Positions 3,637 to 58,857 of a stretch of 64,000 bases of DNA are shown here, one piece after another. How positions within the stretch are numbered: the first letter of the stretch is position 1; each line of letters begins with the position of its first letter. The position numbers were made by a program, and so were the translations under genes. Origin of the DNA: Candidatus Bathyarchaeota archaeon. Lineage in GTDB: Archaea > Thermoproteota > Bathyarchaeia > Bathyarchaeales > Bathycorpusculaceae. The stretch lies in NCBI GenBank assembly GCA_963715865.1, contig OY970280.1, forward strand, positions 1,344,001 through 1,408,000, read 5' to 3'. The notes under the pieces are model-generated. The model saw only the letters and a list, made by a program, of their open reading frames with translations. It was not told the DNA's origin and searched no databases.

Positions 3637-4268
3637 GAATCAATTCTTTTCATTAAATCAGCCATAACCATAGAGTAAGATGAGTTTGGAGCTACTCGAT
3701 TTACGACGCTGCTGCAGTTTTCAATCAGTTCCAAAAGTTTGCTAACGTGTTTTTGTTCCTTTTTGTCGTTTATTAGAGCTTTTACGCGGGTTGCGTGTAT
3801 GATGGCCTCAACCGTTGCTGACATGGCGCGGCAGTAAACTTGAGGATAATTCTGCGTTGCCTGCACTAGTTTTACGTTGCATACGGCTTTGGTTTTTTCT
3901 GTGCCGATTGGCATCATGTCATTGACTGAAACATCGATTGATGCATCTGCAAAACGTAGTCTAGGCGCGTTAACAGTTTTTGCTGGTTCAAACCATTCTT
4001 CAGGCGGTTTTCCGCTGGGGTTTGCTTCTTTGAAGGCTGTTTTGTAAAAAACCTCTATGTTGCTTGTTAAATTTACAACTGCACACCTGTTTGCTTTAAT
4101 GTTACTGCAGGTTGATGATGAATTGAAAAGGTTAATGATGAGATGCTGTTCGTCCTCCATGATGGCGCCCATTGGCGCCGCGTTCGGTTTTCCATCTGTG
4201 TTATAGGTGGAAACTATGGTTTCTGCAATTATGCCTTTTGAGAAGCCTAAATCAGTTAACTTCGCCAT
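3618..4268 (-). CDS. DUF447 family protein (split-barrel, flavin-binding-like)
   Basis: ETIVSTYN..GKPNAAPMG and EAIIHATR motifs. Start moved to ATG 4268 behind an AGGTGG motif. Lies directly upstream of RFAP synthase. Confidence 0.8.
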   Translation of the reverse strand: MAKLTDLGFSKGIIAETIVSTYNTDGKPNAAPMGAIMEDEQHLIINLFNSSSTCSNIKANRCAVVNLTSNIEVFYKTAFKEANPSGKPPEEWFEPAKTVNAPRLRFADASIDVSVNDMMPIGTEKTKAVCNVKLVQATQNYPQVYCRAMSATVEAIIHATRVKALINDKKEQKHVSKLLELIENCSSVVNRVAPNSSYSMVMADLMKRIDSWRNSK

Positions 4269-20883: not shown

Positions 20884-22761
20884 TTATTGTTTAGACAGGA
20901 ATTTCTCAATCTCTTTTTCCGCATTGTCTGCTTTGATGAATATGGGTACGTTCTCCATTCCCGTAGCAATATAGCTGCTCAGGAGCCATTCGCCTGGCGC
21001 AAACTCAAGTGTCTTCTCCAAAATGCCCTTATCAATCATGAACGTTTCACTAACCAAAGCCCTGTCGTATGGTCTTGGTAGGGTGCCGACGAAATACGTG
21101 TGCAACTGCTGAAGCGCGTTAGTGTTCAAGTATGCGATGCGTTGTGTGGCTATGCATACGCCTAAACCGTACTTGCGTCCTTGGCGGAGCAGCGTTTCCA
21201 CGTGCGCGGAGCATTTGCCGTCTATGCCGCCTTCTTTGCTGCTGATGAATTCCTGTGCCTCGTCGAAGACTAATAGGATGTAGGGTTTTACTGTGAATCG
21301 GCGTTTCCTACGTACAAGCAAGTCCTGAGTCAAAGCTATGGCAAGCTCTTTGATGGTGAATGGGTCACTAATTGAGATCACCACGAGGTTAGTTGATGGT
21401 TCCTCGAGCAGTTGCCTTATCCCTTCAACCGTCAATCCTTCTGCGTCGCGGTCTTTCTTCTCGCTGCGCTTCTTGAACAAGTCAGCTATGGTACTTCTTG
21501 TTGTAGCCCATGCGTACAATCCGCTCTTATCATGGACTTTGAATTTCTCAACCGCAGCTCTTGCAACCTCATCAATGTATGGAACAAAGCCTTCGCTGAC
21601 TTCTTGGTTCTCGCTTAACCCTTGCTTCTCAACGTACTCTCGCACGGCATCATGAATTTCATCAATAGCATTAACGTAATGTCCTTTACCAACGGAATCC
21701 TTGCGCTGGTCATCGAGTTCCTCCATGAACTGGCCGTAAGTTGGAATTTTTTGCTTTGGCTTTGTGTAATACGACAGCTTCCCCTGATCTATGATTGCCT
21801 GCAAACCAGCCTTCGTTCGCAGGTCACTTTCATATTCTCTTGGCTTAACCACGGAGTTAAAGAGTTGCTCGAGCGAATCAATCCTATGTTCTAAAACCAG
21901 TTTAGCCTTCACGGCTGGGTCAGCCAGCACATCAAGCAAGAGAAAAGCGTATTCGCAGCTGATGTCGAAGATAACAATCTTCTTCTCATCCATATGAAAC
22001 ATTATTCGCCTCAGAACATTAGACATCAAGTTGCTTTTGCCACCGCCAGTGAACGCGAAAACGCCAAAGTGGTAACGGATCAGTTTTTCGAAATCAACGT
22101 AAATTGGGATTTTGGCTTGGTTGGCTTCGAACATTTTAATTACGCCAAGTCTGGGGTCAATGCGTGCGTCCTCAACGGTTTTTGCTGTGTCAATGCCTAG
22201 TTGTGTAGCGATTTTCTGGTTGTACATGCGGTTAATCATTTCGCTGTTTAGCAGGAGCACGGAGCTGCCGACCACTGGGTAAGAAAACCCTTTAGCAAAC
22301 TCAAACGTACAACCGCCCTTAATGATTAAGTCATAGTTGATGGGAATCGCGTCAATCTGAATCATCATTGTTGACTTGTCATCAGTCTGCCAATCGGCTT
22401 CTGACTGCTCGATGATTTCAAACTGCATCGGATAATATCCATGGTCACTGAGCCCGCGAAGCCCGAAGTGTTCAGGCCAAACGCGGCTAATCTCCATAAG
22501 CGTATACCGCTCGGCTGCGCTGGTTGCGGGCTTAAAATTTTTAACAGCCAACAGCATGCCCTCTTCCAATAAGCCCATCAAATCTTTTTGGTACTCTATT
22601 TTGACTCGGCATTGGTAGCGTGCGCTTGTGCCTGTAACTTTGGAGTCGCCGCCTTCGCCGCCAGCGTAACGGGGCATAACCGCCGCTAAGCGGCCATGAA
22701 ATTTGTCGTCAAAATCTGTGAAGCATTCTTTGTTAACGGTTTTCTCTTCTTGCTTGTTCAA
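20884..22761 (-). CDS. herA: HerA/FtsK-family ATPase
   Basis: Walker A FTGGGKS, Walker B VFDEAQEF, RQGRKYGLGVCIATQR; overlaps the 3' end of nurA. Confidence 0.88.
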   Translation of the reverse strand: MNKQEEKTVNKECFTDFDDKFHGRLAAVMPRYAGGEGGDSKVTGTSARYQCRVKIEYQKDLMGLLEEGMLLAVKNFKPATSAAERYTLMEISRVWPEHFGLRGLSDHGYYPMQFEIIEQSEADWQTDDKSTMMIQIDAIPINYDLIIKGGCTFEFAKGFSYPVVGSSVLLLNSEMINRMYNQKIATQLGIDTAKTVEDARIDPRLGVIKMFEANQAKIPIYVDFEKLIRYHFGVFAFTGGGKSNLMSNVLRRIMFHMDEKKIVIFDISCEYAFLLLDVLADPAVKAKLVLEHRIDSLEQLFNSVVKPREYESDLRTKAGLQAIIDQGKLSYYTKPKQKIPTYGQFMEELDDQRKDSVGKGHYVNAIDEIHDAVREYVEKQGLSENQEVSEGFVPYIDEVARAAVEKFKVHDKSGLYAWATTRSTIADLFKKRSEKKDRDAEGLTVEGIRQLLEEPSTNLVVISISDPFTIKELAIALTQDLLVRRKRRFTVKPYILLVFDEAQEFISSKEGGIDGKCSAHVETLLRQGRKYGLGVCIATQRIAYLNTNALQQLHTYFVGTLPRPYDRALVSETFMIDKGILEKTLEFAPGEWLLSSYIATGMENVPIFIKADNAEKEIEKFLSKQ

Positions 22762-24646
22762 TACTTGCTCGCCTCTCTCGGAAGGTACTCATGTAGAATA
22801 TGAATTTTCTCAATTTATGGTTATTCAAAATCCAGTTCGCTGTGGAATCTGCAACGCATTTGAATTGGCTGTAATTCCACTTGGCAATCTTATCTGCCAC
22901 AAACAACGCTTTATTATGTCCAAAAGCCTCCGGAATATTAACTGGCGCCATAGCCACAAGCATACTCATAACCAGATTTTGCATCTTGTTAGCTATCGAC
23001 TTATCCTTGTATAGAAAGACTTCCACAGGTTCTCTTGTGCCGTCGCTCATTTCATTCCACAAGGCTAAGCAGCACTCGGGCTTGAGGTCAAAGTCAGCGT
23101 AAGCTAAACGGTCAATCAGCAATACGTTGCTCCTCAATAGCGGGTCAGATTTGGCTTGGCTAAGCTGCACATAAGTCTTCAAAAAAGCCTTCTCTAAACC
23201 AATCTTATTCTTAATAATGCCAGAAACATAGCCCTGACCCCTGTCCAAGTCAGCCTTCATCGTTCTAAAAGCTGAATCATACTCAATCAGGCTCCAAGGC
23301 GGCACCACTTTCTCTGGGTTTAAAACGCTTGCTGATTGGAGAATCATGCGGTCAGTGTTCGGGAGTGCTGTCAACGCTTCGTTTTCCACTGCTGCTTTCA
23401 GTAAGCCTTCGTTTTGCATTATTGGAATTAACTGGCGCTTGAAATCCCTCGCTGAAGTGTCCTTTGTGATGCCTACAAGCAGGATGCGTTTTCTCCAACA
23501 CTCCTCCATAAGCATCTGCAAAGCGAACAGCGTCAAAAAAGCAATATCAAGCGTGGTTAACCAGTGCTCTTTGCCATCCTTGACTATTTTCATGCTGCTG
23601 GATGTTTCTGTCGAGAGGTTTTTTGTGGAAAAAAGTTTGTCGCCAACTTCGATGGTTAAACGTTTTGTATGCTCCCAACTGTCAACATACTGCTTGTTTA
23701 AAGCGTAAATGCCATCGGTGTCTGTTAGGATGTGTTTTGTGATTAAGCGTGATAGGGTTTTTTCGACCCTTCTTTTACGTTTATCATCCACTATCCCTAA
23801 GGCTTCGCAGATTTGCGTTTGCGTCAACGTTTTGTTTTCTTCCGCTAGGCAAGTTATTGCATGACGTAGGTAATCCGCCCTTGGAGCAGGCAAACCCAAA
23901 GCCTTATTGCAAACGTGATGGCGTGCTATGGCTAAATCGTTCGGATCAACTTTCCTTCCGTTGATACTGTAGCCAACGAGTGCGCTTTTTGCATCCCAAA
24001 AATCTGTTTTCCTAGTTTCGTATAGGAGGCTTGCGCGTTCCGTGGATAAGCTTCTATCCATTAAAAGTACCCTAATGTTCTGTGCCTGGTCAACGGCAAG
24101 CTTGTAGGCTAAGTAAAACTCTGAAAAAGTCATGATTACGTTAGCTATTAGCGAATTGTTTGCAATTTCTTCATCTGTAGCCGGCTTTGAAGGGTTAACT
24201 TCGCCGGGCTGCTCTTCCGCCGAAAACGAAGTGTCAACATCAGGGATTTCGTTTATGTATATTGGGACGACGCTGGATACGCCTATGTTTTGCTGAATCG
24301 TCTTAGCGTCATATTCAACTTGAGGCTCAGCTGCTTCTGCGAATCTTACGGTGCCTGTTGAGGCGTAAGCGCCGCCGAAAAAAATAACCATGTCAAACAG
24401 TGGTCGCGAGTACATTGTGCCGTCTATGCCTGCAAAGCGAACGCTGTCTGAACCGAAGAATTCTTTAGCCGTTTCCCAAGCTTCCTTCGGATTGAAGCGT
24501 GACTTTATCAGGTTCACAAGTAAACCATCATAAGCGTCTTTCAGGATTGAGAAGCGCTGCTCATAGTCGGTGACTTGTTTGGTTGCGCCTTGCCTCAGAT
24601 TATCGCATGTATGTTTCATTGTGTCGCTAAGCGAAGGCGCAGTCAC
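22733..24646 (-). CDS. nurA: Large NurA-family nuclease with internal winged-helix-like insertion
   Basis: FAGIDGT, LLMDRSLS, LVGITKD, HNKALFVADKIAK NurA-type motifs; 637 aa; upstream of herA. Confidence 0.82.
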   Translation of the reverse strand: MTAPSLSDTMKHTCDNLRQGATKQVTDYEQRFSILKDAYDGLLVNLIKSRFNPKEAWETAKEFFGSDSVRFAGIDGTMYSRPLFDMVIFFGGAYASTGTVRFAEAAEPQVEYDAKTIQQNIGVSSVVPIYINEIPDVDTSFSAEEQPGEVNPSKPATDEEIANNSLIANVIMTFSEFYLAYKLAVDQAQNIRVLLMDRSLSTERASLLYETRKTDFWDAKSALVGYSINGRKVDPNDLAIARHHVCNKALGLPAPRADYLRHAITCLAEENKTLTQTQICEALGIVDDKRKRRVEKTLSRLITKHILTDTDGIYALNKQYVDSWEHTKRLTIEVGDKLFSTKNLSTETSSSMKIVKDGKEHWLTTLDIAFLTLFALQMLMEECWRKRILLVGITKDTSARDFKRQLIPIMQNEGLLKAAVENEALTALPNTDRMILQSASVLNPEKVVPPWSLIEYDSAFRTMKADLDRGQGYVSGIIKNKIGLEKAFLKTYVQLSQAKSDPLLRSNVLLIDRLAYADFDLKPECCLALWNEMSDGTREPVEVFLYKDKSIANKMQNLVMSMLVAMAPVNIPEAFGHNKALFVADKIAKWNYSQFKCVADSTANWILNNHKLRKFIFYMSTFRERRASIEQARRENR

Positions 24647-25009: not shown

Positions 25010-25096
25010 GCGGGATTGCCCTAGCCTGGTAGGGGGCAGGCCTGCTAAGTCTGTGGTCGAAAGGCCGCGTGGGTTCAAATCCCACATCCCGCGCCA
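25010..25096 (+). tRNA. tRNA-Ser(GCT), intronless, encoded CCA
   Basis: Acceptor GCGGGAT/ATCCCGC, D-arm with TGGTA, anticodon arm CAGGC-CTGCTAA-GTCTG, long variable arm GTGGTC-GAAA-GGCCGC, T-arm GTGGG-TTCAAAT-CCCAC. Confidence 0.95.
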
Positions 25097-25368
25097 CGCT
25101 TCTTTTACAAATTAGGGCTTGATTATTGCTTATTTATCCAAATAGGGTGCAATAAACGCTAAGAAATTAGCCAATTTCCAAGTTTATTGGTAAAAAGATT
25201 TAGGGTTTAATTTACACATGCCACAGAAGTCTAAATCATTTGTTCATAAAGTGAGACTTTTCCAACTGAGAATGTTGACGTTGTTTCAAAGTTTGACGTT
25301 GAACAAAACTAATTAGTTTCATTCTTATCAGTATTTAGAATCTATTAAGACACTGGCGGCAAATTGCT

Positions 25369-26262
25369 GTGCATACTCTGGAATTGAATAATGTATCTTC
25401 CGGTTACAATAAGCAAGTCGTCTTGCATGATATCAGCTTCAAACTACACGAGCCCTCAATATATGTTGTTTTAGGGCCAAACGGCGCGGGCAAAACAACT
25501 TTGTTTAGAACAATCGCGGGTATACTTGAGCCATTTAGCGGTAAGGTCCTTCTGGACGACCAAAACATAACCACATCAGGCAAGACGCGAACAAGAATAA
25601 GCTTTCTCTCGCAGTACAACGCAATGCCTGAAGAGATGACTGTGTATAACGCGCTTAAGTTTTACTCTGACATCGAGGGCGGAGATACCGACGAGGTGAT
25701 TGATCTGCTGGATCTTAGCCAACTGAAAAATAAAAGGTTCTCCGATCTTTCACAGGGACAAAAAAAGAGAGCCGCAATCGCAAAGGTGTTTCTTCACGAA
25801 AGCGAGTTGTATTTGCTAGATGAACCCACCGCGAATTTAGACCCAGCAGTTTCAAAAGAAATTCGAGATATTATACTAAAATTAAGTAAAGACAAAATGA
25901 TTCTGTACTCTTCCCATAACCTCTATGAAGCAACCGATATTGGAACATACCTTATTTTAATCAAGAATGGCTCTGTGACATTGTTTGATAAAATCTCAAA
26001 CATTAAACCCAAACAGTTCCGAGTAGGCATCAACGCATCAACAGACATATCTAAAATTATAGACGCCCAACGTGAGGGCGATTATTTTGTTTTGAATGTG
26101 TCTAGCCCTGAGGAAGCAGGGCTTGCTTTGAAGAAATTGGTTGAAAGTGGTGTTTTGGTTACTGAAATGCGTCAGCTTGATAATCCTTTGCAAGAGCTTT
26201 TTGAGTCACCCAATGGAAACGTGGAAAAAACACAAAAGGAGTCACAGCAAGTTGCCAAATAG
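25369..26262 (+). CDS. ABC transporter ATP-binding protein (exporter type)
   Basis: GPNGAGKT, LSQGQKKR signature variant, LLDEP. Confidence 0.92.
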   Translation: MHTLELNNVSSGYNKQVVLHDISFKLHEPSIYVVLGPNGAGKTTLFRTIAGILEPFSGKVLLDDQNITTSGKTRTRISFLSQYNAMPEEMTVYNALKFYSDIEGGDTDEVIDLLDLSQLKNKRFSDLSQGQKKRAAIAKVFLHESELYLLDEPTANLDPAVSKEIRDIILKLSKDKMILYSSHNLYEATDIGTYLILIKNGSVTLFDKISNIKPKQFRVGINASTDISKIIDAQREGDYFVLNVSSPEEAGLALKKLVESGVLVTEMRQLDNPLQELFESPNGNVEKTQKESQQVAK

Positions 26263-26923
26263 TACACTGATTTTTGCTAAACGAAGCCTCAGTTTGAGCA
26301 AAATATATTCTGGAGCAGGAATTTTTCTGGCTATCTTTGGAATATTTGTATCAGACGCAATCATCCTTTCTGGTGGAGCGGCTGCACCGTACTTTCTTTT
26401 TCCAGCTGCGTTTATGGCTCTTGGACTTCTAATGTTCACAACGTCTGTTATTCTACTGTACGTCTATGACAAAAATAATGGAGTTTTGGAGTATCTACTT
26501 TCACTTGGCTGGAATCAAAGTGACATCTTTAAGCGTTACTTAAAAGCCGCGCTTTTCCTTGCGCTTACTCTTTTCATTGCTGAATTTGCCGCTAATGTTG
26601 TAGCAAGTGTGATTGCAGGGTCACTCTTAGGTTTAGTGACGTCAGCTTTTACCGCTGCGTTGGGTTTTTCAGCCGTTTCTTTAGTTACAATTGCTATGAT
26701 GGCTTTCAGCTCGTTACAAAAGCAGCGAGTAGGTGCCAATAGTCCTCTTGCTTTGTCGATTGGCGTCGTGGTTATCCTTCCCACGTTTTATATTCCGTTT
26801 CTTTTACCTTTTTCTGCAGCCATCTTAGTTGACCTGTTTATTGCTGGGCTTGCGGGTGGTCTGTCAATTGTGTTGTTGATTTTGTCAAGCAGGCTAATTA
26901 GAAGGGAAAAAATGCTTCCGTAA
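26252..26923 (+). CDS. ABC-2-type permease-like membrane protein
   Basis: About 6 TM helices, DKNNGVLEYLLSLG motif. Start set at TTG 26252 after AGGAG, overlapping the ATPase stop; ORF track gives 26141. Confidence 0.78.
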   Translation: MPNSTLIFAKRSLSLSKIYSGAGIFLAIFGIFVSDAIILSGGAAAPYFLFPAAFMALGLLMFTTSVILLYVYDKNNGVLEYLLSLGWNQSDIFKRYLKAALFLALTLFIAEFAANVVASVIAGSLLGLVTSAFTAALGFSAVSLVTIAMMAFSSLQKQRVGANSPLALSIGVVVILPTFYIPFLLPFSAAILVDLFIAGLAGGLSIVLLILSSRLIRREKMLP

Positions 26924-26960
26924 ATACCAGGCGACCAACATTGCTTTCTCATATTTCTAA

Positions 26961-27007
26961 CTTTTCGTGTGGAATTTAAACGTGGGTGTAAACCTAACAT
27001 CCCGCGC
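26961..27007 (+). repeat. 47-bp att-like repeat, copy A, ending in the tRNA 3' end (ACATCCCGCGC)
   Basis: 46/47 identical to 29954-30000; CGTGGGT and ACATCCCGCGC match the tRNA-Ser T-arm and acceptor. Confidence 0.9.
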
Positions 27008-27294
27008 TTCGCCCCTTTTGCAAAATAGGGGTTAATTATCGTTTATTTGAGCAAATAGAACCAAGAAATTGCTTTTAAGTTATTTGCTCCTGTGGTTTCA
27101 TCGCATAAAAACTATCAACCGTTTAAATAGCACGCAAAGTAGGGAAGTATCTTAATGGAAATAGAATGATTGCGAATAGAATAATGTGTTCTATGTCTTA
27201 GAAGATGTAACTCATTAAATTTTGTCTTAAATATAAGAACCTTCATCATAGAGATTAGACGCTCGGAATAGTAAACGCCACCTTGTGATGCCTA

Positions 27295-28296
27295 TTGATA
27301 GACACGGAAAACTTGACAAAAAAGTTTGGCAACCTTAATCCAATCAACGAACCGGCAGGTCGAAAGAGCGTTGTCAACGTGAATCATCTCCGCAAGCAAT
27401 ACGGCACAACAGTCGCCGTCGACAACGTCTCATTCTCCATTGCCGAAGGCGAGATTTTCGGCATCATAGGACCTAACGGAGCTGGAAAGACAACCGCGGT
27501 TGAATGTATTTCAGGGCTTCGTGTTCCAGACTCGGGTTCCGCAACTGTTTATGACCTTAATCCCAGAGACGACCGTGAGGAACTGTGTAAATACGTTGGA
27601 GTCCAACTCCAAGAAAGCTCATTACCTCCACGTATCAAGGTCGGGGAGGCTCTTGAACTCTTTGCATCTTTCTATCAAAATCCTGTTAATCCAAAGGATT
27701 TACTCGAATCGCTTGGAATCGCTCAAAAAAGTAATGCCAAATTCAAACAACTGTCCGGCGGCCAAAAACAGCGACTTTCAATCGCGCTAGCACTTATTGG
27801 AAATCCAAAGATTGCTATTCTAGATGAACTTACCACTGGGCTTGACCCGGAAGCAAGACGCGAGACTTGGGAACTTATAGAGCGTATTAGGGATCGAGGC
27901 GTGACAGTGATTCTTGTAACGCATTACATGGATGAAGCCGAAAGACTGTGTGACCGACTGGCCTTAATTAATCACGGGAAAGTCGTTGCCCTCGACACTC
28001 CCGCGGCTCTTGCGGCACGCGAAGGCGGTGGCGCACGCATGCAGTTTGTACCTTCTGGACCTGTAGATGATAAGGTTCTGACTGCGTTGCCGGGTGTAAC
28101 TTCGGTTGAACATAAGGGTAGGCGTATCGTTGTTGTCGGTTCTGGTGACCTTACTACACAGGTGCTTTATGCGCTACTAAACGTTGGAGTGCATGCTTCG
28201 GATGTTCAGGTGGAAAACGGCAGTCTTGAAGATGCCTTCGTCAAACTCACACAGACAGACGATAATGCCAGAAAACATGAGGTAGGTCTGCAATGA
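27295..28296 (+). CDS. ABC transporter ATP-binding protein (DrrA-like)
   Basis: GPNGAGKT, LSGGQ, ILDE, THYMDEAE. Confidence 0.92.
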   Translation: MIDTENLTKKFGNLNPINEPAGRKSVVNVNHLRKQYGTTVAVDNVSFSIAEGEIFGIIGPNGAGKTTAVECISGLRVPDSGSATVYDLNPRDDREELCKYVGVQLQESSLPPRIKVGEALELFASFYQNPVNPKDLLESLGIAQKSNAKFKQLSGGQKQRLSIALALIGNPKIAILDELTTGLDPEARRETWELIERIRDRGVTVILVTHYMDEAERLCDRLALINHGKVVALDTPAALAAREGGGARMQFVPSGPVDDKVLTALPGVTSVEHKGRRIVVVGSGDLTTQVLYALLNVGVHASDVQVENGSLEDAFVKLTQTDDNARKHEVGLQ

Positions 28297-29069
28297 GCGC
28301 ACAAGCTTCTAAAGCGTCAGAACACTATTCCTCCAATCCATTCTGGGAACTGGTCAAGGTCGAGGGGAAACTCGCCCTAAGGGAGCCAATTGGCATAATA
28401 TTTGGCGTCGGACTTCCTGTATTCTTGCTGATTATATTTGGTAGCATTCCTGCCTTCAGACAGACTGTTCCTGGCACAACATTATCAACATTCGAAGTTT
28501 ACATTCCGATTCTTATGATAACTGTGCTGATATTTATTGGACTATTTGGCTTACCTATTCCAATTGCTCGCGACCGTGAGATTGGTTGGCTAAGGCGGAT
28601 CTCTACCACGCCCGTGTCGCCAACCAAGATATTGGCTGCGCAGGTGACAATCAATCTTGTTCTTGCGGCGATATCATTTGCAATACTTACGGCTGGAGGA
28701 GTCTTTTTCTTCGGGGTGAAGGGGCCGTCTGAGATTCTTGGATTCGCTCTTTCGATTGTGCTGGCAACGATTGCAATGTTTTCTTTGGGATTGCTTATTG
28801 CTGCGCTCGCGCCTTCACAGGGGGTTGCTGGAGGTATGGCACAGGGTCTTCTATATCCGCTGTTATTCTTCGCAGGAATTTACGTTCCCATGCAGTTCCT
28901 TCCAGGCTACCTGCAAACAATAAGCAATTTCACTCCAGTTGGAGCTGCAGTTCAGGCTCTTGGAAGCTCGATGCAGGGAACATTTCCTTCTATTATACCG
29001 CTGCTTGTGATGGCTGCTTATGCAGTTTTCTTTGGCTTTGTCGCCGCTCGTTACTTCAGGTGGGAATAA
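28293..29069 (+). CDS. ABC-2 permease (DrrB-like)
   Basis: 6 TM helices, RDREIGWLRRISTTP, FFAGIYVP; ATGA overlap with the ATPase gene. Confidence 0.9.
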   Translation: MSAQASKASEHYSSNPFWELVKVEGKLALREPIGIIFGVGLPVFLLIIFGSIPAFRQTVPGTTLSTFEVYIPILMITVLIFIGLFGLPIPIARDREIGWLRRISTTPVSPTKILAAQVTINLVLAAISFAILTAGGVFFFGVKGPSEILGFALSIVLATIAMFSLGLLIAALAPSQGVAGGMAQGLLYPLLFFAGIYVPMQFLPGYLQTISNFTPVGAAVQALGSSMQGTFPSIIPLLVMAAYAVFFGFVAARYFRWE

Positions 29070-29169
29070 GCATGGCGCTTGCTATCAGTAGTTAGCTATA
29101 TACCTGTTATGGAGGCACAGAAAGTCTTTAAAATAAACGTTAAGATATTGGAGCAAAAGGGTGCCATAT

Positions 29170-29313
29170 GTGAAGCTTCATTCAATTCCTGATCTTGAAG
29201 GTCGACCTGCCGGCAACTTTGAAAGAAATGTCAAGAAACCTCCTACCACTGTTCGAAAGAAAGTCATGCAAGAAGCATCTGTGCTTTTTGACCGGACAAA
29301 AATACGCGGATAG
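29170..29313 (+). CDS. 47-aa ORF, candidate antitoxin of the GNAT gene (absent from ORF track)
   Basis: GTG start after GGGTG; MKLHSIPDLEGRPAGNFERNVKKPPTTVRKKVMQEASVLFDRTKIRG; ends 26 nt before the GNAT start. Confidence 0.55.
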   Translation: MKLHSIPDLEGRPAGNFERNVKKPPTTVRKKVMQEASVLFDRTKIRG

Positions 29314-29339
29314 TAACTGAGGTAGGTACCAGATTAAGA

Positions 29340-29879
29340 ATGTCTTCCAAATTCACCCCGAGTGGTCTGTCAGTCAAAAAACTAGATGATCGGACAGACC
29401 TTTCAAGTTTTAATTGCAACGAGAATGATGAGCTAAAGTTAGACGAGTTTATCCATGATGAGGCTCTAAATTTACAAAAAGGAAGCATGGGAACTACCTA
29501 TCTGTTTTACAACGAGGACAAAGTAGTTGGTTATGTAACGATATTAATGAGCTGCATCGGTGTGAACCTGAACAAACCGCGTTCGGACACTTCTAGACAC
29601 AAGCTGCGCAAATTGCACTATCCAGCTCTTTATCTAGCGAAAATAGCAGTAGAAAACAGATTTAGACGGCGATATATTGGAAAATTGATGCTCTTTTGGT
29701 GCATCGGCTTTGCACTAAAACTGTCAGAGGAAATAGGATGTCGTTTCATATTCTTGGTTACCAAAGGGGAATCTCGAGTTAAATTTTATCATGAATGTGG
29801 TTTTCAAGAAAGCAGTTTCACCCTTAAAAAAAAGACTGGCAAAGAAGAATGGAAGATGATGTACTTTCAATTAGTCTAA
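29340..29879 (+). CDS. GNAT acetyltransferase, TacT/AtaT toxin-like
   Basis: SSFNC..LDEFI..EA, VVGYVTI, PALYLAKIAV, IGCRFI pattern typical of GNAT toxins. Confidence 0.75.
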   Translation: MSSKFTPSGLSVKKLDDRTDLSSFNCNENDELKLDEFIHDEALNLQKGSMGTTYLFYNEDKVVGYVTILMSCIGVNLNKPRSDTSRHKLRKLHYPALYLAKIAVENRFRRRYIGKLMLFWCIGFALKLSEEIGCRFIFLVTKGESRVKFYHECGFQESSFTLKKKTGKEEWKMMYFQLV

Positions 29880-29915
29880 ATAACCGCGATTAAGGCTCTG
29901 AACCCTTTTGGATCT

Positions 29916-29931
29916 GGAACCCAGCGGTTCC
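29916..29931. other. Perfect hairpin GGAACC-CAGC-GGTTCC between the GNAT stop and att-like copy B
   Basis: 6-bp inverted repeat seen directly; function (terminator or recombination site) unknown. Confidence 0.4.
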
Positions 29932-29953
29932 AACAAATTCCGATTATCCATAG

Positions 29954-30002
29954 CTTTTCGTGTGGAATTTAAACGTGGGTGTAAAGCTAACATCCCGCGC
30001 CA
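29954..30002 (+). repeat. att-like repeat, copy B, ending ACATCCCGCGCCA
   Basis: 46/47 identical to 26961-27007; the last 13 nt equal the tRNA 3' end including CCA. Confidence 0.9.
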
Positions 30003-30029
30003 ACTTTGCAATTGTAGCTTAAAACGGGT

Positions 30030-30539
30030 TTATGAGTAGTGTTGTTTGATGAATTTGGCGAGGTTGATGATTTCGAGGTCGCTGTTGCATCTTGGGCAGG
30101 TTTTTTGTATTTCGGGTGCTTTTGCGCCGATTTTCAGCGGTGCTCCACAGTGGCAGCAGTAGTATGTTAGGGTTTGTCCTTTCTCCGAGAGGGTTTTGAC
30201 GAGGGCGGCTGCTTCTTTTTGCGTCTCGGTTAATTGTTTATCTTTCTTTTTAGCAGGATTTGCTTTTTTCTCGGTGGAGTAGTCTTTGCAGGTTTCTGCT
30301 TGAGCAAAGTACGTGTTAAACCCAACCTTCGCAGGCACCAACGCTTTCCCAGTCTTCTTGCAGGACTCCTCATCGAGGTAGCCGCAGTCTTCACAGGTTT
30401 TCTTCTTGTCATACTCCTTCCGAAGCGTCCACAAGCACTCCGCACAATACAGCCGCTCTTCACCATTGATACTCACGGTTAAGCCTGAACCAGAGAAGGA
30501 TTTTTTGCAACCGCAACATTCAAACCGCATAGTGTTCAC
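30030..30539 (-). CDS. Multi-zinc-ribbon protein
   Basis: Five CxxC pairs (CCGC, CAEC, CEDC, CCHC, CPRC) in 169 aa. Confidence 0.75.
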   Translation of the reverse strand: MNTMRFECCGCKKSFSGSGLTVSINGEERLYCAECLWTLRKEYDKKKTCEDCGYLDEESCKKTGKALVPAKVGFNTYFAQAETCKDYSTEKKANPAKKKDKQLTETQKEAAALVKTLSEKGQTLTYYCCHCGAPLKIGAKAPEIQKTCPRCNSDLEIINLAKFIKQHYS

Positions 30540-30704
30540 GTGAAAACTACTATTTGGTCAGGCTTTTATTTATTGTTTGATTTAGCATTTTGTGGAAATG
30601 CCTTGTTCACGAGCATAACAGCGAGGAATTCAGCCAAAAATGCCCAAGATGTACTTGATGTTTTCTATCTGTCCTCATCACGTCGTTTAAACAGCTGAAT
30701 TTTC

Positions 30705-31556
30705 TTATTGTAAGCGTTGCTTATGCACCGATAGGTATCTTCTGACAAAGTAGGTCACGAAGCCTTCTTCAGGTCGCTGCAGAGCTTTGTAGTAGGAGTT
30801 TCTCCTCTTGTATTCTATTATGAGCATGGGATAACCGTTTTTCCACAAGATAAAATTCATTAGAAGTCTGCCTATTCTGCCGTTACCATCGCCGAAGGGA
30901 TGTGTTTTTTCAAACATGTAATGCGCCCTTCCTGCTACCTCGACGGGATTCAGTCTTGATTCATTCACGAACGTTATTAGTTGCTTCACTAGCTTTTCCA
31001 AGTCACGCCAATCGGGTGCCACGTAAAGTCCCACTCTTACAACATAGTTTCTAAATTGCCCAGCGATGTCTGGTTTTGTCTCTTCGAAAATATCTTTATG
31101 CCATCTCAACAAAAGCCTCTCCGATATTTTCTCGTCCGTTTTTAGCATTCCTAAAAACACTTTTGCGTGAGATTCGGTTTCCCTGATGTCCTTGAGAGGC
31201 TTACTTGGAGCGACTTTATCTTCCAGTATTTGCCTTGCTTCCTCAAGCGTTATAGTGGATCCTTCAATCGCGTTAGTGTTGTAAGTAAAAGCTATTGCTA
31301 TCTCCTGAAGTTCCTTTTCTTTTGCAGATTCAGGATACCTTGCCCATTCTTTCTGATAGCGATTTTTTATTTTTTCCAGTTTTTCTGACAGAGCATCTTT
31401 AGCCTCAAGCATGAGTTTAGCTTTGATTTCTTCGATGTTGTCTGGCACTTTTTTGCCTAAATATAGTTCTTTGGTGACGACTTCTCCGTCTTTTCTGAAC
31501 GAGTGTTGCAGGTAAAAATACTTTGATTTACCCTTCTTTCTTTCAACAATGTGCAT
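30705..31556 (-). CDS. Fic-family protein with N-terminal inhibitory helix
   Basis: HPFGDGNGRIGR catalytic motif and TNAIEG (S/T-x3-E-G/N) auto-inhibitory motif. Confidence 0.92.
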   Translation of the reverse strand: MHIVERKKGKSKYFYLQHSFRKDGEVVTKELYLGKKVPDNIEEIKAKLMLEAKDALSEKLEKIKNRYQKEWARYPESAKEKELQEIAIAFTYNTNAIEGSTITLEEARQILEDKVAPSKPLKDIRETESHAKVFLGMLKTDEKISERLLLRWHKDIFEETKPDIAGQFRNYVVRVGLYVAPDWRDLEKLVKQLITFVNESRLNPVEVAGRAHYMFEKTHPFGDGNGRIGRLLMNFILWKNGYPMLIIEYKRRNSYYKALQRPEEGFVTYFVRRYLSVHKQRLQ

Positions 31557-31691
31557 AAGCCTTTTACCATTACATCTCGTATAAATTTTTCGTTTTCATC
31601 AACTTCTGTAATGGTAATAGTTCCTTTACGTTTCGGGATTTTAACGAACATGAATACGAATAGAAACCAAAACAAACGACCAAATTCCACG

Positions 31692-31747
31692 CTGCTAAGT
31701 ATATGGTCGAAAGGGCCGCGTGGGTTCAAATCCCACATCCCATGCCA
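31692..31747 (+). repeat. attR-like copy of the tRNA-Ser 3' half (anticodon loop to CCA)
   Basis: Matches 25042-25096 with 4 substitutions and one extra G; no 5' half upstream. Confidence 0.92.
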
Positions 31748-31783
31748 CTTTTAAAATTTTAATTAAACAACTGAGCTTTTTCG

Positions 31784-32392
31784 TTAAACTACGAAATGAG
31801 TTACGCCAGTAAGAATGTATTGGATTGCAATGGCAGCAATAAGCAACGCCATAACCCTTGCTATAACTAAGGAGCCTGTTTTGCCTAAAAACCTGTAAAT
31901 GCCGTTTATGAACCTAAGAATGACCCATGTTAAGGATAACACAATTAAAACCGCCAGAATCGCTGTTACCGTACCGTAGGATTGAAGATTAAATATGGTT
32001 GTGGTGATGGCTCCCGGCCCCACAAGAAGAGGTATAGCAATGGGAACTGCGCCTAAGCTCTCTGGAGACTCAACGTCCTCATGCATGCTGCCCGAGATCA
32101 AAATTCTAATTGCAATAATTAGCAATAGAATGCCCCCGGCAACCTCGAAACTGTAAATCGATAATCCAAAAATCGTCAAAATCTCTTGACCAGTGAAAGC
32201 GAAAACAAGAAGCAGAATAAAGCCGACGAGCGCCGCGGTGTTGTATACTTTCTTTTTCTGTGTATCTGCCATTTTTTCGGTTAAGCCCATAAAGATGGGA
32301 ATGTTACCGAAAGGATCAACTATGATGAATAATGCTATAATGGCTTTAGCTAATTCTGAGATGAAATCCAACCTAACATTCCCCAGACTCAA
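31784..32392 (-). CDS. MarC family membrane protein
   Basis: LFIIVDPFGNIPIF, AGGILL, VPIAIPLLVGPGAITT. Confidence 0.92.
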   Translation of the reverse strand: MSLGNVRLDFISELAKAIIALFIIVDPFGNIPIFMGLTEKMADTQKKKVYNTAALVGFILLLVFAFTGQEILTIFGLSIYSFEVAGGILLLIIAIRILISGSMHEDVESPESLGAVPIAIPLLVGPGAITTTIFNLQSYGTVTAILAVLIVLSLTWVILRFINGIYRFLGKTGSLVIARVMALLIAAIAIQYILTGVTHFVV

Positions 32393-33915: not shown

Positions 33916-35190
33916 ATGGCAGCGGGAGACATAGCATGGGTCCTAACCGCAACAGCACTAGTCATGCTAATGACGCCGGCACTAGGATTCTTCTACGGAG
34001 GCCTAGTGCGAAAGAAAAACCTAGTATCAACAATCGTCCAATGCTTCGTAATATTCGCAGTCATAAGCATAGTCTGGGCACTCTGGGGCTACTGCCTTGT
34101 ATTCGGCACAAGCATCAACGGCTTAATCGGCTTCAGCCCAAGCTTAGTAGGCATGAGCGGCCTAGACATACACGCCGTTAATACGGCACTTGCACCACAA
34201 GTTCCTGAACTACTATACTTCGCATTCCAGTTGAAGTTCGCAGCCATCACACCAGCACTAATCATAGGCGCATGCGCCGAAAGAATCAGGTTCAAGTCAC
34301 TCCTCATCTTTATGGTGCTCTGGTCCACACTTATCTATGCGCCAATAGCCCACTGGGTATGGAACCCTGACGGGTGGCTCCGCACCTTTGGTGCCATTGA
34401 CTTTGCAGGCGGCATCGTCGTGCATATTTCAGCAGGCCTTTCAGCGTTGGCAGCGGCACTAGTGGTAGGTAGAAGGAAAGGGTGCGCTGTTCCATGGCAG
34501 AGTCATATGAAATCGTTAGATCAAAAAGCTAACGCAACTGAGTTTAAGCCAACAAACATTCCCTTTGTATTGCTAGGCGCAGCATTACTGTGGTTCGGAT
34601 GGTTCGGATTCAATGCTGGCAGTGCACTAGCCGCAAACGACTTAGCTGTCTCAGCGCTTGTAACTACAAACTTAGCAGCAGCCGCAGCAGCCGTAAGCTG
34701 GATGATGGCAGACTGGTTAATCAAGGGAAAACCATCAGCGGTAGGCATAGCAGTTGGCGCAGTAGTTGGATTAGTTGCTATCACGCCTGCAGCAGGCTAC
34801 GTCAACATATCATCAGCATTAATCATTGGCTTAGCAGCAGGAGTTATCTCAAACTTAGTAGCTAACTGGAGAGCAGGCAGATCACGAATAGACGATACGC
34901 TGGATGTGTTCGCATGCCACGGCGTCGGCGGAATATGGGGTTCAATCGCAACAGGACTATTCGCTTCTGGAGCTATCCAACTCGGAATAAACGGCGCGTT
35001 CTTCGGAAACCCAGCTCAACTGGTTGCTCAATTGGTAGCAGTTGCCGTGGTGGTGCCGTTTGCCTTCTTCGGTTCTTACTTACTGCTTAAATTGGTGAAC
35101 GTGTTCTCGCCGTTAAGAGTTAGCGAGGAAGCGGAAGATGCAGGTTTAGACCTGAGTGAACATGGCGAAGAAGCATACCAACTTGAATAG
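33916..35190 (+). CDS. amt: Ammonium transporter
   Basis: FQLKFAAITPAL, DFAGGIVVH, WFGWFGFN, DDTLDVFACHG (twin-His retained). Confidence 0.96.
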   Translation: MAAGDIAWVLTATALVMLMTPALGFFYGGLVRKKNLVSTIVQCFVIFAVISIVWALWGYCLVFGTSINGLIGFSPSLVGMSGLDIHAVNTALAPQVPELLYFAFQLKFAAITPALIIGACAERIRFKSLLIFMVLWSTLIYAPIAHWVWNPDGWLRTFGAIDFAGGIVVHISAGLSALAAALVVGRRKGCAVPWQSHMKSLDQKANATEFKPTNIPFVLLGAALLWFGWFGFNAGSALAANDLAVSALVTTNLAAAAAAVSWMMADWLIKGKPSAVGIAVGAVVGLVAITPAAGYVNISSALIIGLAAGVISNLVANWRAGRSRIDDTLDVFACHGVGGIWGSIATGLFASGAIQLGINGAFFGNPAQLVAQLVAVAVVVPFAFFGSYLLLKLVNVFSPLRVSEEAEDAGLDLSEHGEEAYQLE

Positions 35191-35225
35191 AAACGCCGTG
35201 TATAGCTAAGGCTAAACAGCTACAA

Positions 35226-35247
35226 TTTTCTTTTTTTATTTTATTTT
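35226..35247 (+). terminator. Oligo-T archaeal terminator-like tract after the first amt
   Basis: TTTTCTTTTTTTATTTTATTTT, 35 nt after the stop. Confidence 0.5.
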
Positions 35248-35507
35248 AGCAACCAATTTTTCACTCCACCAATATTTTTCAAAAAGCATTTGAATGTGTT
35301 AGCTCCAAAGGGCTTTGTTTTTGGACGCCTTTTCATAAAATCGATTATATCAAGGGAAGTTGTTGAAAGAATGCACTGATAGCAAGCACTTTTTTATTCA
35401 TTTATCCAGAATTATCGCTGTTATCAATGCGAATGTATAGTTTAAATATTAGTTTTGCCAAGATGCAAGAATAAACGAGCAGTAATAACGCTAGCGAAGG
35501 AACAAAT

Positions 35508-36791
35508 ATGGGAGCAGCAGACATCGCGTGGGTTCTAATGTCAACAGCTCTAGTCATGCTAATGACACCAGCCTTGGCTTTCTTTTACGGCGGCTTAGTT
35601 CGAAGAAAGAACTTGGTCTCTACGCTGGTCCAATGTATCATCATCTTTGCAGTGGTTAGTCTCGTTTGGTTCTTTTGGGGCTATAGCCTCGTTTATGGCC
35701 CCAGCGTTTATGGAATCATAGGCAACCTGTCTCTTTTCGGATTAAACAACATAAGCATAAATACCGTTAGCCCTTACGCGCCAGCTATTCCTGAAATACT
35801 CTTCTTCGCATTTCAGCTAAAGTTTGCCGCAATCACGCCAGCGCTCATCATAGGAGCATGCGCAGAAAGAATCCGCTTCAAGTCACTCCTCATCTTCGTC
35901 ATTTTGTGGTCAACCTTCATTTATTCACCCATCGCTCATTGGGTATGGAACGCCAATGGGTGGTTGCATGTCCTTGGCGCGTGGGATTTTGCAGGCGGCA
36001 TAGTCGTGCACATTGCTGCAGGATTATCGGCACTGGCAGCGGCGCTTATTGTTGGCAGAAGAAAAGGCTACGTTTACTGGAAGGACCAACTCAAAGCATT
36101 AGACCAAAAAGGCGAAAGTAAACCAGTACCCATGGGAACCGAGTTTAAACCAACCAACATTCCCTACGTGATTTTAGGCGCAGGCTTACTGTGGTTCGGC
36201 TGGTTCGGTTTCAACGGTGGCAGCGCATTAGCAGCCGATAACATTGCTGTGTCTGCCGTTGTAGCTACCAACTTGGCAGCCGCCGCAGCAGCCGTAAGCT
36301 GGATGCTACTGGATTGGGTAATCAAGGGTAAGCCTTCAGCAACAGGCATTTCAGTCGGCGCAGTGTGTGGTTTGGCAGCTATTACAGCGGCTTCTGGCTA
36401 CGTTAATTTTACTGCCGCGGTGATTATTGGTTTAGTTGCAGGAGTAGCTTCCAACTTGGTGGCTAACTGGCGAGCTGGCAGGTCAAGAATCGACGACACA
36501 TTAGACGTTTTCGCATGCCATGGAATCGGCGGCATGATTGGTGCAGTCGCAGTTGGCTTGTTCGCAACTGCTATGGTTAATCCTAGCGTTCAAGGATTAT
36601 TCTATGGCAACGCTGCTCTGCTGGGCATCCAAGTGCTTGCTGTTTTAGTCGTGTCTGCCTTCGCGTTTTGCGGGTCTTACTTGCTTTTGAGAGTGGTGGA
36701 CCTGTTCTCGCCATTGAGAGTGAGTCCTCAAGAAGAAGATGAAGGCTTGGATTTGAGCCAGCATGGAGAAGAAGCATACCACCTTGACTAA
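35508..36791 (+). CDS. amt: Ammonium transporter, tandem paralog
   Basis: Same motifs as the first copy, with long identical peptide stretches. Confidence 0.96.
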   Translation: MGAADIAWVLMSTALVMLMTPALAFFYGGLVRRKNLVSTLVQCIIIFAVVSLVWFFWGYSLVYGPSVYGIIGNLSLFGLNNISINTVSPYAPAIPEILFFAFQLKFAAITPALIIGACAERIRFKSLLIFVILWSTFIYSPIAHWVWNANGWLHVLGAWDFAGGIVVHIAAGLSALAAALIVGRRKGYVYWKDQLKALDQKGESKPVPMGTEFKPTNIPYVILGAGLLWFGWFGFNGGSALAADNIAVSAVVATNLAAAAAAVSWMLLDWVIKGKPSATGISVGAVCGLAAITAASGYVNFTAAVIIGLVAGVASNLVANWRAGRSRIDDTLDVFACHGIGGMIGAVAVGLFATAMVNPSVQGLFYGNAALLGIQVLAVLVVSAFAFCGSYLLLRVVDLFSPLRVSPQEEDEGLDLSQHGEEAYHLD

Positions 36792-58176: not shown

Positions 58177-58857
58177 GTGCCTGTAGAAGCGGTAATATTT
58201 GATTTAGACGGAACACTTGCCAACTTCAACCTAGATTACAAGACGCTCCGTGCTGAAGTCAGAAGTTACCTAATTAGAACAAGTGTCCCCGCATCCCTTC
58301 TAAACGTTAACGAAAGCATTTTTGAAATGCTGAAAAAAGCCGAGATTTTCGTCAAAAACAACGGTAAACCCGCTGGAACATTTGAGGAAGTCCGCAGTCA
58401 AGCCTTTGCCATCGCAGAGAAATATGAGATGGAAGCTGCCTCAACCACAAGTTTGCAGCCAGGAGCCAACGAAACGCTGAAGGAGTTGAAGCGGATGAAT
58501 TTGAAAATGGGTTTATGCACTACCAGCAGCGACAAAGCCGCAAATTATATTCTGCAACGCTTTAAAATAGAAGATTTCTTCCAGAGTGTGGTTTCCAGAA
58601 ACAAAGTAAAGTACGTTAAACCGAATACGGAACAGTTTGAACTGGCACTTAAAGCGTTAGGCGCACGTCCAAAAGCCGCTGTGATAGTTGGAGACAGCAC
58701 GGTGGACATGCAAAGTGCAAAGGAATTGAAAGCCATCGCAGTAGGTTTACCAACAGGCCTTTCCACAATGGAGCAGTTGATGAACAATGGCGCAAACTAC
58801 ATTATAACTTCATTAACTGATTTGCCAGTCCTTATAAAGAAAATAAATGAGAATTAA
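58177..58857 (+). CDS. HAD-superfamily hydrolase (phosphoglycolate phosphatase-like)
   Basis: IFDLDGTL, CTTS, KP, VGDSTVD. Confidence 0.9.
   Translation: MPVEAVIFDLDGTLANFNLDYKTLRAEVRSYLIRTSVPASLLNVNESIFEMLKKAEIFVKNNGKPAGTFEEVRSQAFAIAEKYEMEAASTTSLQPGANETLKELKRMNLKMGLCTTSSDKAANYILQRFKIEDFFQSVVSRNKVKYVKPNTEQFELALKALGARPKAAVIVGDSTVDMQSAKELKAIAVGLPTGLSTMEQLMNNGANYIITSLTDLPVLIKKINEN

Follow-up and report, generated by a model that had tools for sequence, protein, structure and literature searches.

What divides the 6.65 kb downstream of a tRNA-Ser(GCT) gene of a Bathyarchaeota archaeon into three small units, and could these units be mobile? We analysed a 64,000-nucleotide (nt) stretch of this genome, hereafter the window (G000:C1:1344001-1408000, where G000 denotes the genome, a single contig of 2.35 Mb with ~42% G+C). 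With moderate confidence, we read the first two units, together with a further copy at tRNA-Leu(GAG) elsewhere in the genome, as non-autonomous integrative cassettes of one genus-specific family that would draw on an integrase supplied elsewhere. The array is anchored on its attB/attL side by an intact tRNA-Ser(GCT) gene with an encoded CCA (25010-25096, + strand; ARAGORN; Rfam tRNA 54.9 bits), the sole tRNA that ARAGORN and Rfam found in the window. A repeat search places copies of the tRNA 3′ end in direct orientation at 25060-25097 (copy 1), 26958-27007 (copy 2), 29951-30000 (copy 3) and 31692-31748 (copy 4), spaced 1913, 2993 and 1745 nt start to start, and the three downstream copies on the same strand cut the 6.65 kb into units of 1.9, 3.0 and 1.7 kb. 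An earlier note, made from the letters of this DNA alone, had described four such copies and three units, and ARAGORN, Rfam and the repeat search bear that division out; Pfam likewise recovers the gene content it gave, which is an ABC exporter in unit 1, an ABC exporter with a small open reading frame (ORF) and a GNAT gene in unit 2, and zinc-finger and Fic genes in unit 3.

Comparison of the copies with the tRNA gene reveals that they are of unlike nature. Copies 2 and 3 show 96% identity to each other across 50 nt, and their identity to the tRNA is limited to the last 9-11 nt, ATCCCGCGC with or without CA. The place of the T arm GTGGGTTCAAATCCCAC is occupied in both by GTGGGTGTAAACCTAAC, a look-alike that could not fold as a T arm, and a second similar half-site, CGTGTGGAATTTAAA, precedes it. 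In contrast, copy 4 (31692-31748, + strand) is a true 57-nt copy of the tRNA-Ser 3′ half that runs from the anticodon loop to the CCA at 92% identity (repeat search; blastn of the tRNA against the genome). The array therefore contains two kinds of boundary, and the description of all copies as tRNA 3′ ends holds fully for copy 4 and, for copies 2 and 3, only for the final 9-11 nt.

The boundaries of units 1 and 2 belong to a cassette with a constant anatomy: a ~80-nt left end, accessory genes over 0.2-7 kb, a ~45-nt right end and a 9-11-nt core that equals the tRNA acceptor strand. We located the ends with nhmmer profiles built from 30 left ends of the type termed L-A and from 113 right ends. 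Cassette 1, on the + strand, opens with an L-A left end (25096-25175, E=1.8e-11) that sets oligo-T immediately 3′ of the tRNA, continues with cargo at 25369-26923 comprising an ABC ATPase (25369-26262; Pfam ABC_tran 1.4e-30) and an overlapping membrane ORF of 260 amino acids (aa) (26141-26923) that matches no Pfam family and has an uncertain start codon position, and closes with a right end formed by tandem CGTG-type half-sites, the T-arm look-alike and the tRNA-Ser acceptor 3′ strand (26944-27009, containing copy 2; E=2.5e-13 and repeat search). Cassette 2, also on the + strand, has an L-A left end (27010-27089, E=4.1e-11), cargo at 27295-29879 identified with Pfam as an ABC ATPase (27295-28296), an ABC-2 permease (28293-29069), a 50-aa ORF (29161-29313) and a GNAT acetyltransferase (29340-29879), and a right end with acceptor strand and CCA (29942-30002, containing copy 3 and 96% identical to copy 2; E=2.1e-12). 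We considered whether the GNAT gene is a fused second cassette and rejected this, as a profile search finds no hidden junction between permease and GNAT. The two left ends, for which the earlier note counted 28 of 34 identical positions (25102-25135 versus 27015-27048), indeed look homologous by eye, and the repeat search extends their similarity to 78 nt at 77% identity; the 20-mer said to be common to the sequence before copies 2 and 3 is also there by eye. No inverted repeat links the two ends of any unit in the repeat search, and the ends are unlike each other and directional. As the earlier note also held, the array encodes no integrase: Pfam gives no Phage_integrase (tyrosine recombinase) match within or beside 25010-31748, and the nearest lies hundreds of kb off.

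A whole-genome search with the copy-2 region uncovered a homologous left end directly 3′ of tRNA-Leu(GAG) (G000:2240376), at the head of an array outside the window (G000:C1:2240291-2248074; locus L014:4292-12075). The same T-arm look-alike stands 7 kb further on, followed by CCTCCGCAC(CA), which is the acceptor strand of tRNA-Leu. The look-alike is kept and the core is switched, so the look-alike is borne by the element and the short core follows the target tRNA. This 7-kb cassette carries genes for a peroxiredoxin (AhpC), a catalase-peroxidase (KatG) and a Fur-family regulator, an insertion sequence (IS; DDE_Tnp_1) and a PNPOx-like gene, with no integrase among them. The next unit, of 0.7 kb, holds a PIN toxin gene preceded by a 73-aa ORF, the two probably a VapBC-type pair, and terminates in a true tRNA-Leu copy of 60 nt; the architecture of the locus matches that of the tRNA-Ser locus. 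A profile search of the whole genome returns exactly three right ends and three L-A left ends, all correctly paired.

We next examined the ends of the wider family. Each right end pairs two CGTG-type half-sites in direct orientation, with the T arm imitated by the second, and the half-sites agree with each other as GTGG+GTGGG in 40 of 113 right ends and as GTGA+GTGAA in 32 of 113. Left ends fall into two types, L-A with a T-rich opening stretch of the CCTTTTGCC type and L-B opening with TTTCCAAATTCA, which stand downstream of 30 and 29, respectively, of the 112 right ends with readable sequence. End subtypes co-vary within cassettes (L-B, 13 GG versus 1 AA; L-A, 6 GG versus 12 AA; related copies are not independent), and such matching of left and right is expected of discrete units with paired ends. 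Placement of CA versus TT after the core varies among junctions, consistent with a crossover within or just before the CCA. Neither Rfam nor folding of the junctions yields a known RNA or a conserved fold, and the RNAalifold consensus of 18 junctions (-3.5 kcal/mol) contains only a 7-pair G-U-rich stem.

Searches beyond this genome, as the earlier note had proposed, reveal that the ends are widespread. With up to two mismatches allowed, 50 of the 120 genomes of the genus together hold ~105 copies of the right-end motif, which has 0 matches in the 120 genomes when reversed; the array pattern is not chance because 105 forward matches stand against none reversed. Sixteen genomes sampled across other genera of the order gave no match to the motif. 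When a collection of 185,579 species, each represented by a single genome, was scanned for the exact pattern, 46 stretches were recovered, 42 of them titled Bathyarchaeota or Bathyarchaeia and one 'uncultured archaeon', with the other three on short contigs binned under other names, and a scan of metagenomes with the right-end pattern returned 89 more stretches. We take the family to be specific to one genus of peat and soil Bathyarchaeia. In the loci that we fetched, every mapped occurrence of the motif (66/66) lies downstream of tRNA-Ser(GCT) or tRNA-Leu(GAG) and on the tRNA strand, often two or three in a row.

Taking junctions as boundaries, we delimited 50 cassettes that are complete and distinct, with lengths of 204-6959 bp and a median of 1.9 kb. 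Some of 204-358 bp are free of ORFs, among them a 358-bp cassette (L080:3976-4333; oriented 3667-4025) made of a left end, ~230 nt of A+T-rich ORF-free sequence and a right end, which is a candidate for the minimal mobile unit. Cargo is mixed, and 66 ORFs matched 70 Pfam families that include ABC transporters, Zn-dependent dehydrogenases, methyltransferases, FMN reductase, ArsB, KatG, TFIIB, nitroreductase, lipocalin, an MFS transporter, sensor kinases and PIN toxins. Many cassettes hold two to six genes, and cargo ORFs lie on either strand (48 on the tRNA strand, 27 opposite). The ends are far better conserved than the cargo, which is unrelated among cassettes. No integrase appears among the 25 commonest of the 70 cargo families or in 10 large ORFs scanned singly, and tblastn with an integrase panel finds none inside any cassette apart from one frameshifted case in genome G048, described below.

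To ask whether cassettes come and go, we compared number, order and content among relatives, as the earlier note had suggested; all three differ, and empty sites exist. The ancestral order is methyltransferase, HerA-like ATPase, a 637-aa protein, tRNA-Ser and MarC. In the genome under study, cassette 1, cassette 2, the zinc-finger and Fic genes and the true 57-nt copy intervene before MarC, a membrane protein and the first host gene past the array (31784-32392, - strand; Pfam MarC 3.4e-46). Genome G058 has neither a cassette nor a distal copy, and MarC stands 0.7 kb from its tRNA-Ser; G076, with an upstream flank 95% identical, holds two wholly different cassettes, a zinc-finger homologue, 22 kb of contractile-injection genes, a Fic homologue, a true tRNA copy and MarC; and in G045, where MarC is 98% identical, a single cassette directly abuts the MarC flank. 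Cassette 1 recurs in two other species at 84-87% identity, in first place ahead of an ArsB cassette in locus L060 and in second place behind the 358-bp empty cassette in L080, and the ABC part of cassette 2, without GNAT and at 88% identity, forms the first cassette of L048. Loci L049 and L061, from two species, are 94.6% identical over exactly one cassette, junction to junction, with dissimilar flanks. In three peat metagenome runs, assembled contigs connect 25097 with 31784 by way of 31 nt resembling the MarC-side flank, which is the empty site in a related population; contig depth is lower over the cassettes than over the flanks, a measure that cannot rank parts and was not used. Together, these comparisons establish gain and loss at the level of whole cassettes and support accretion at the tRNA gene. 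A sharing of genes alone also occurs: we asked whether katG marks the same cassette at tRNA-Leu here and at tRNA-Ser of L050 and rejected the match, because the two have nothing but the gene in common (85%), in inverted orientation and between ends of different types.

Unit 3 departs from this pattern. It spans 30003-31691 and encodes, on the - strand, a Zn-ribbon protein (30030-30539) and a Fic-domain protein (30705-31556; Pfam Fic 2.1e-21); it has no family left end, is closed by the true 57-nt tRNA-Ser copy and matches a far larger island in a relative, G076, where homologues of its zinc-finger (88%) and Fic (81%) genes enclose 22 kb. The proposal that members of one family integrated successively at a restored tRNA is thus supported for units 1 and 2, with their conserved ends, and fails for unit 3. 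In 17 loci, arrays have a Fic homologue at their distal end. We read unit 3 as an older island of another type whose proximal tRNA was later entered by the cassettes, and the copy at 31692-31748 as its distal att scar. Unit 3 may have shrunk from a larger island, or it may show the locus as it was before a 22-kb insertion such as that in G076. The G076 cluster itself (L114:14393-20000 and L094:1-16500) encodes sheath, baseplate J, gpD-like hub, spike OB-domain, PAAR, PKD/Ig and phospholipase C-like proteins.

How might such cassettes move? The array junction, with right end, core and left end in that order, has the composition expected of attP in an excised circle. Once excised, a cassette would be circular, with its right-end/core/left-end junction functioning as attP. 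A tyrosine integrase from another locus would bind both the T arm in the tRNA gene and its look-alike on the cassette, with the second half-site serving as an arm-type site, and strand exchange would take place inside the 9-11-bp acceptor-strand core. The tRNA would be rebuilt from the cassette's own core together with the T-rich left end, which probably terminates the tRNA gene. Each new insertion would push older cassettes distally, so that repeated insertion could build an array, and recombination between any two cores could remove or reshuffle cassettes. More tentatively, and with more doubt than belief, the genus may run a tRNA-anchored gene-capture platform, similar in working to an integron and different in construction, in which a family of tRNA-adjacent tyrosine integrases inserts, excises and reshuffles kb-sized, recombinase-less cassettes in trans at tRNA-Ser(GCT) and tRNA-Leu(GAG); the bipartite attP of each cassette would have a right arm imitating the tRNA T arm, and sister systems with other end types would serve other tRNAs in this genome.

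We surveyed candidate recombinases. The genome encodes at least five full-length tyrosine recombinases and several fragments, including two integrases of 430 and 435 aa (67% alike) that start ~55 nt past tRNA-Pro(CGG) and tRNA-Gly(GCC). We rejected the proposal that the islands of the integrases designated int230k and int896k bear the same right end, as nhmmer finds just the three known copies in this genome, and no distal core repeat (tRNA repeat) occurs within 60 kb of either integrase. Across the genus, the motif is present in 18 of 21 genomes with a close int230k family member versus 32 of 99 without, an association confounded by kinship, and genome relatedness could be its source. At tRNA-Ser itself, G048 has a frameshifted integrase between the tRNA and a degenerate right end, and its intact 428-aa orthologue in G072 lies directly 3′ of tRNA-Ser with no distal repeat within 52 kb. 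A different, X-type integrase of 295 aa belongs in G136 to an element of its own (7 kb, 24-nt att) that is placed between tRNA-Ser and a cassette, and relatives of the integrase lie 0.6-3.4 kb from right ends in three metagenome contigs. Other enzyme classes fared no better as candidates. Serine recombinases were set aside because the genome has only two, both in an island at tRNA-Pro; it has no HUH (Y1) transposase; and clustering of 549 ORFs around arrays for a recurrent neighbour gene returned ABC ATPases, Fic proteins and host genes and no recurrent recombinase.

Several results weigh against mobilisation of the cassettes by an integrase acting in trans. No integrase is tied to these ends, and no intact element bearing them carries one: the 120 genus genomes, the 46 genome stretches and the 89 metagenome stretches contain no intact autonomous family member. 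The genome under study has no close homologue of the tRNA-Ser integrase, its best match (40%) being at tRNA-Lys. Circle junctions, which the earlier note had proposed to look for, did not appear: among 80 metagenome loci there are no terminal overlaps marking circles, and two contig joints that lead back into the array (30003 to 26962 and 31751 to 25043), tried as circle junctions, are uninformative because their short side of 31-34 letters lies wholly inside repeats in what are assembled contigs only. A viral contig collection holds 0 exact matches to the right-end motif. Divergence of cassette 1 from the L060 copy (87% identity) is about equal to that of the host flank (84%), so its presence in L060 could be vertical. 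Nor does the reading account for how new genes come to lie between the two ends.

Some of these points would suit a graveyard, in which each unit lost the integrase of a once autonomous element and nothing is mobilised in trans at present. In archaea, elements are known both to integrate in tandem and to lose their integrase gene once integrated, according to the parts of one review that deal with them (PMC8371274); G048 retains a frameshifted integrase ahead of a degenerate right end, the genome under study has no recognisable integrase specific for tRNA-Ser or tRNA-Leu, and unit 3 could well have such an origin. Decay that ran independently in each element would be expected to leave many intermediates, however, and the ~105 right ends and 50 complete cassettes include no intact integrase; the ends are also much better kept than the unrelated cargo, left and right subtypes match within a cassette, some cassettes of 204-358 bp lack any ORF, and homology between species can be precise to one cassette. 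We therefore regard the fossil account as unlikely. Homologous recombination after DNA uptake, with the ~130-bp conserved junctions as portable homology and no dedicated site-specific recombinase, draws on different observations: junctions between cassettes are 85-96% alike, enough for exchange, and the first 260 nt of cassette 2 are common, at 93%, to a different cassette in G076. Homologous exchange of modules between tandem integrated elements has in addition been proposed for archaea, in the relevant portion of the same review (PMC8371274). As a full account it leaves unexplained where the ends come from, why the core is invariably identical to the acceptor strand of whichever tRNA, Ser or Leu, lies next to it, why the right end imitates a T arm and why the family is restricted to two tRNAs and always to the tRNA orientation, and we think it quite improbable on its own; exchange at junctions may act as a supplementary route.

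Under a third account, the tRNA 3′ end was duplicated in tandem once, locally, and then decayed, the units being ordinary host genes; the presence of ABC exporters and similar flanks in both units 1 and 2 would agree with this. The same ends are found with unrelated cargo at tRNA-Leu in this genome and in 49 other genomes, and relatives hold other cassettes or none at tRNA-Ser, which leaves this account hardly any credence; it is excluded because the locus varies among relatives, the ends occur elsewhere and empty sites exist. Non-autonomous cassettes, presumably moved by an integrase supplied in trans, remain the reading that we favour.

The cassettes resemble several known systems and coincide with none of them. 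Like integron cassettes, they are small, lack a recombinase, stack head to tail with the newest nearest the anchor, carry diverse accessory cargo and form arrays that vary among close relatives, and integrons have reportedly been found in Archaea. The attC sites of integrons are imperfect inverted repeats (R″/L″...L′/R′, with R′ = GTTRRRY) that fold as single-strand hairpins. Here no intI lies beside the array, the upstream genes being the HerA-like ATPase and the 637-aa protein; there is no attC hairpin, and ACCTAAC fits RYYYAAC and stands alone, with no GTTRRRY partner by eye. The junction is instead a two-part, duplex-type site that shares 9-11 nt with the tRNA. Integron cassettes are mostly single promoterless ORFs in the same orientation, whereas those described here are often multi-gene, with genes on either strand and a leader of ~270 nt. 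The label 'integron-like' given by the earlier note is thus an analogy only, with no adjacent integrase, attC-type hairpin or strict gene orientation behind it.

A second comparison is with the cis-mobilizable elements (CIMEs) found at integration sites of streptococcal integrative conjugative elements (ICEs) and integrative mobilizable elements (IMEs), which are likewise bounded by att sites, devoid of a recombination module and arranged in tandem at one site. Movement of CIMEs presumably relies on the recombinase of a related element; they are few, are deletion derivatives of recognisable ICEs or IMEs and are mobilised by joining a conjugative helper. Every cassette in our set has the acceptor-strand core on both sides and conserved arms, and Pfam, run on ORFs of the window, 66 cargo ORFs and 10 large ORFs, and tblastn with the integrase panel find no recombination or transfer module. 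The differences from CIMEs are that ~100 small cassettes carry unrelated cargo, that the junction is composite and attP-like with a T-arm look-alike, that the host is archaeal and that no parent or helper is recognisable, the frameshifted integrase with a degenerate right end in G048 being the only hint of one. Absence of terminal inverted repeats, and of a Y1 (HUH) transposase in this genome, separates the family from IS and miniature inverted-repeat transposable elements. Integrative mobile elements exploiting Xer (IMEX) use host Xer at dif, in contrast to the 3′ ends of tRNA-Ser(GCT) and tRNA-Leu(GAG) targeted here.

Tycheposons of Prochlorococcus also target tRNA 3′ ends, push older elements inward by successive integration, scatter partial tRNAs and carry niche-adaptive cargo, and their far-side partial tRNA repeat has a counterpart here that is cut to 9-11 exact nt plus the T-arm look-alike. 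Tycheposons encode their own integrase (a tyrosine recombinase in 910 of 937), many carry genes linked to autonomous replication, and they are flanked by true partial tRNAs (bioRxiv 10.1101/2020.12.28.424599), whereas the cassettes have no integrase or replication module, are much smaller and possess family-specific conserved ends. In archaea, arrays at tRNA sites that arise from repeated tyrosine-recombinase integration and integrase-less remnants are known from those sections of two reviews that cover them (PMC8371274, PMC6563490). The integrated elements treated in the same sections differ from the cassettes, being proviruses, plasmids and cryptic elements that span 5-100 kb, carry genes for replication or integration and are described singly (PMC8371274, PMC6563490). 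Within a limited literature search, the parts of these reviews that deal with archaeal integrated elements do not describe a family of kb-sized cassettes with shared ends (PMC8371274, PMC6563490).

Bathyarchaeia are abundant and uncultured, and gene exchange among them is little understood. That related species hold different packets at the same spot points to an undescribed form of accessory-gene swapping in these archaea. The cargo reads as a tool-kit for shifting conditions in peat, with ABC exporters, an arsenite pump, catalase-peroxidase, peroxiredoxin, alcohol dehydrogenases, nitroreductase, methyltransferases, TFIIB, sensor kinases and toxin-antitoxin genes. If cassettes are moved in trans, they would constitute a compact, site-specific route of archaeal gene flux comparable in effect to integrons, and their short, defined DNA sites and few candidate integrases would be open to direct testing. 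The T-arm look-alike may reveal how an integrase reads a tRNA gene, and the conserved ends offer a simple probe for accessory genes of Bathyarchaeia in metagenomes.

Repeat arrays of other kinds occur elsewhere in the same genome. Downstream of tRNA-Ala(TGC) (G000:C1:1731489-1740367) lie three partial 3′-end copies of 24-25 nt, two of them preceded by near-identical sequence, in a tandem array without an obvious integrase. At tRNA-Gly(GCC), the 435-aa integrase is followed by ~30 kb with many tRNA-3′-like repeats (G000:C1:867000-897600), several of which form a hairpin mirroring the T stem together with acceptor strands of other tRNAs (Arg-like, Pro-like); the region looks like an integrase-headed cassette array of a different end family. 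Given the repeat arrays at tRNA-Ala and tRNA-Gly, the phenomenon in this genome is thus wider than one family. The island at tRNA-Pro(CGG) (G000:C1:225500-231502) begins with the 430-aa tyrosine integrase, 55 nt past the tRNA, and contains serine recombinases of 319 and 534 aa; a search over 60 kb gave no distal tRNA repeat.

Around the array in the window, the HerA-like ATPase (DUF87, 625 aa) and the overlapping 637-aa protein, which matches no Pfam family, occupy 20884-24646 (- strand) directly upstream of tRNA-Ser, a position that the pair keeps in G058 and G076. Just past the array, tandem genes for ammonium transporters of 424 and 427 aa lie at 33916-36791 (+ strand), and in G136 this pair directly abuts the last right end of the tRNA-Ser array. 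Close to the end of the window, an ORF of 1700 aa extends over 58854-63956 (- strand).

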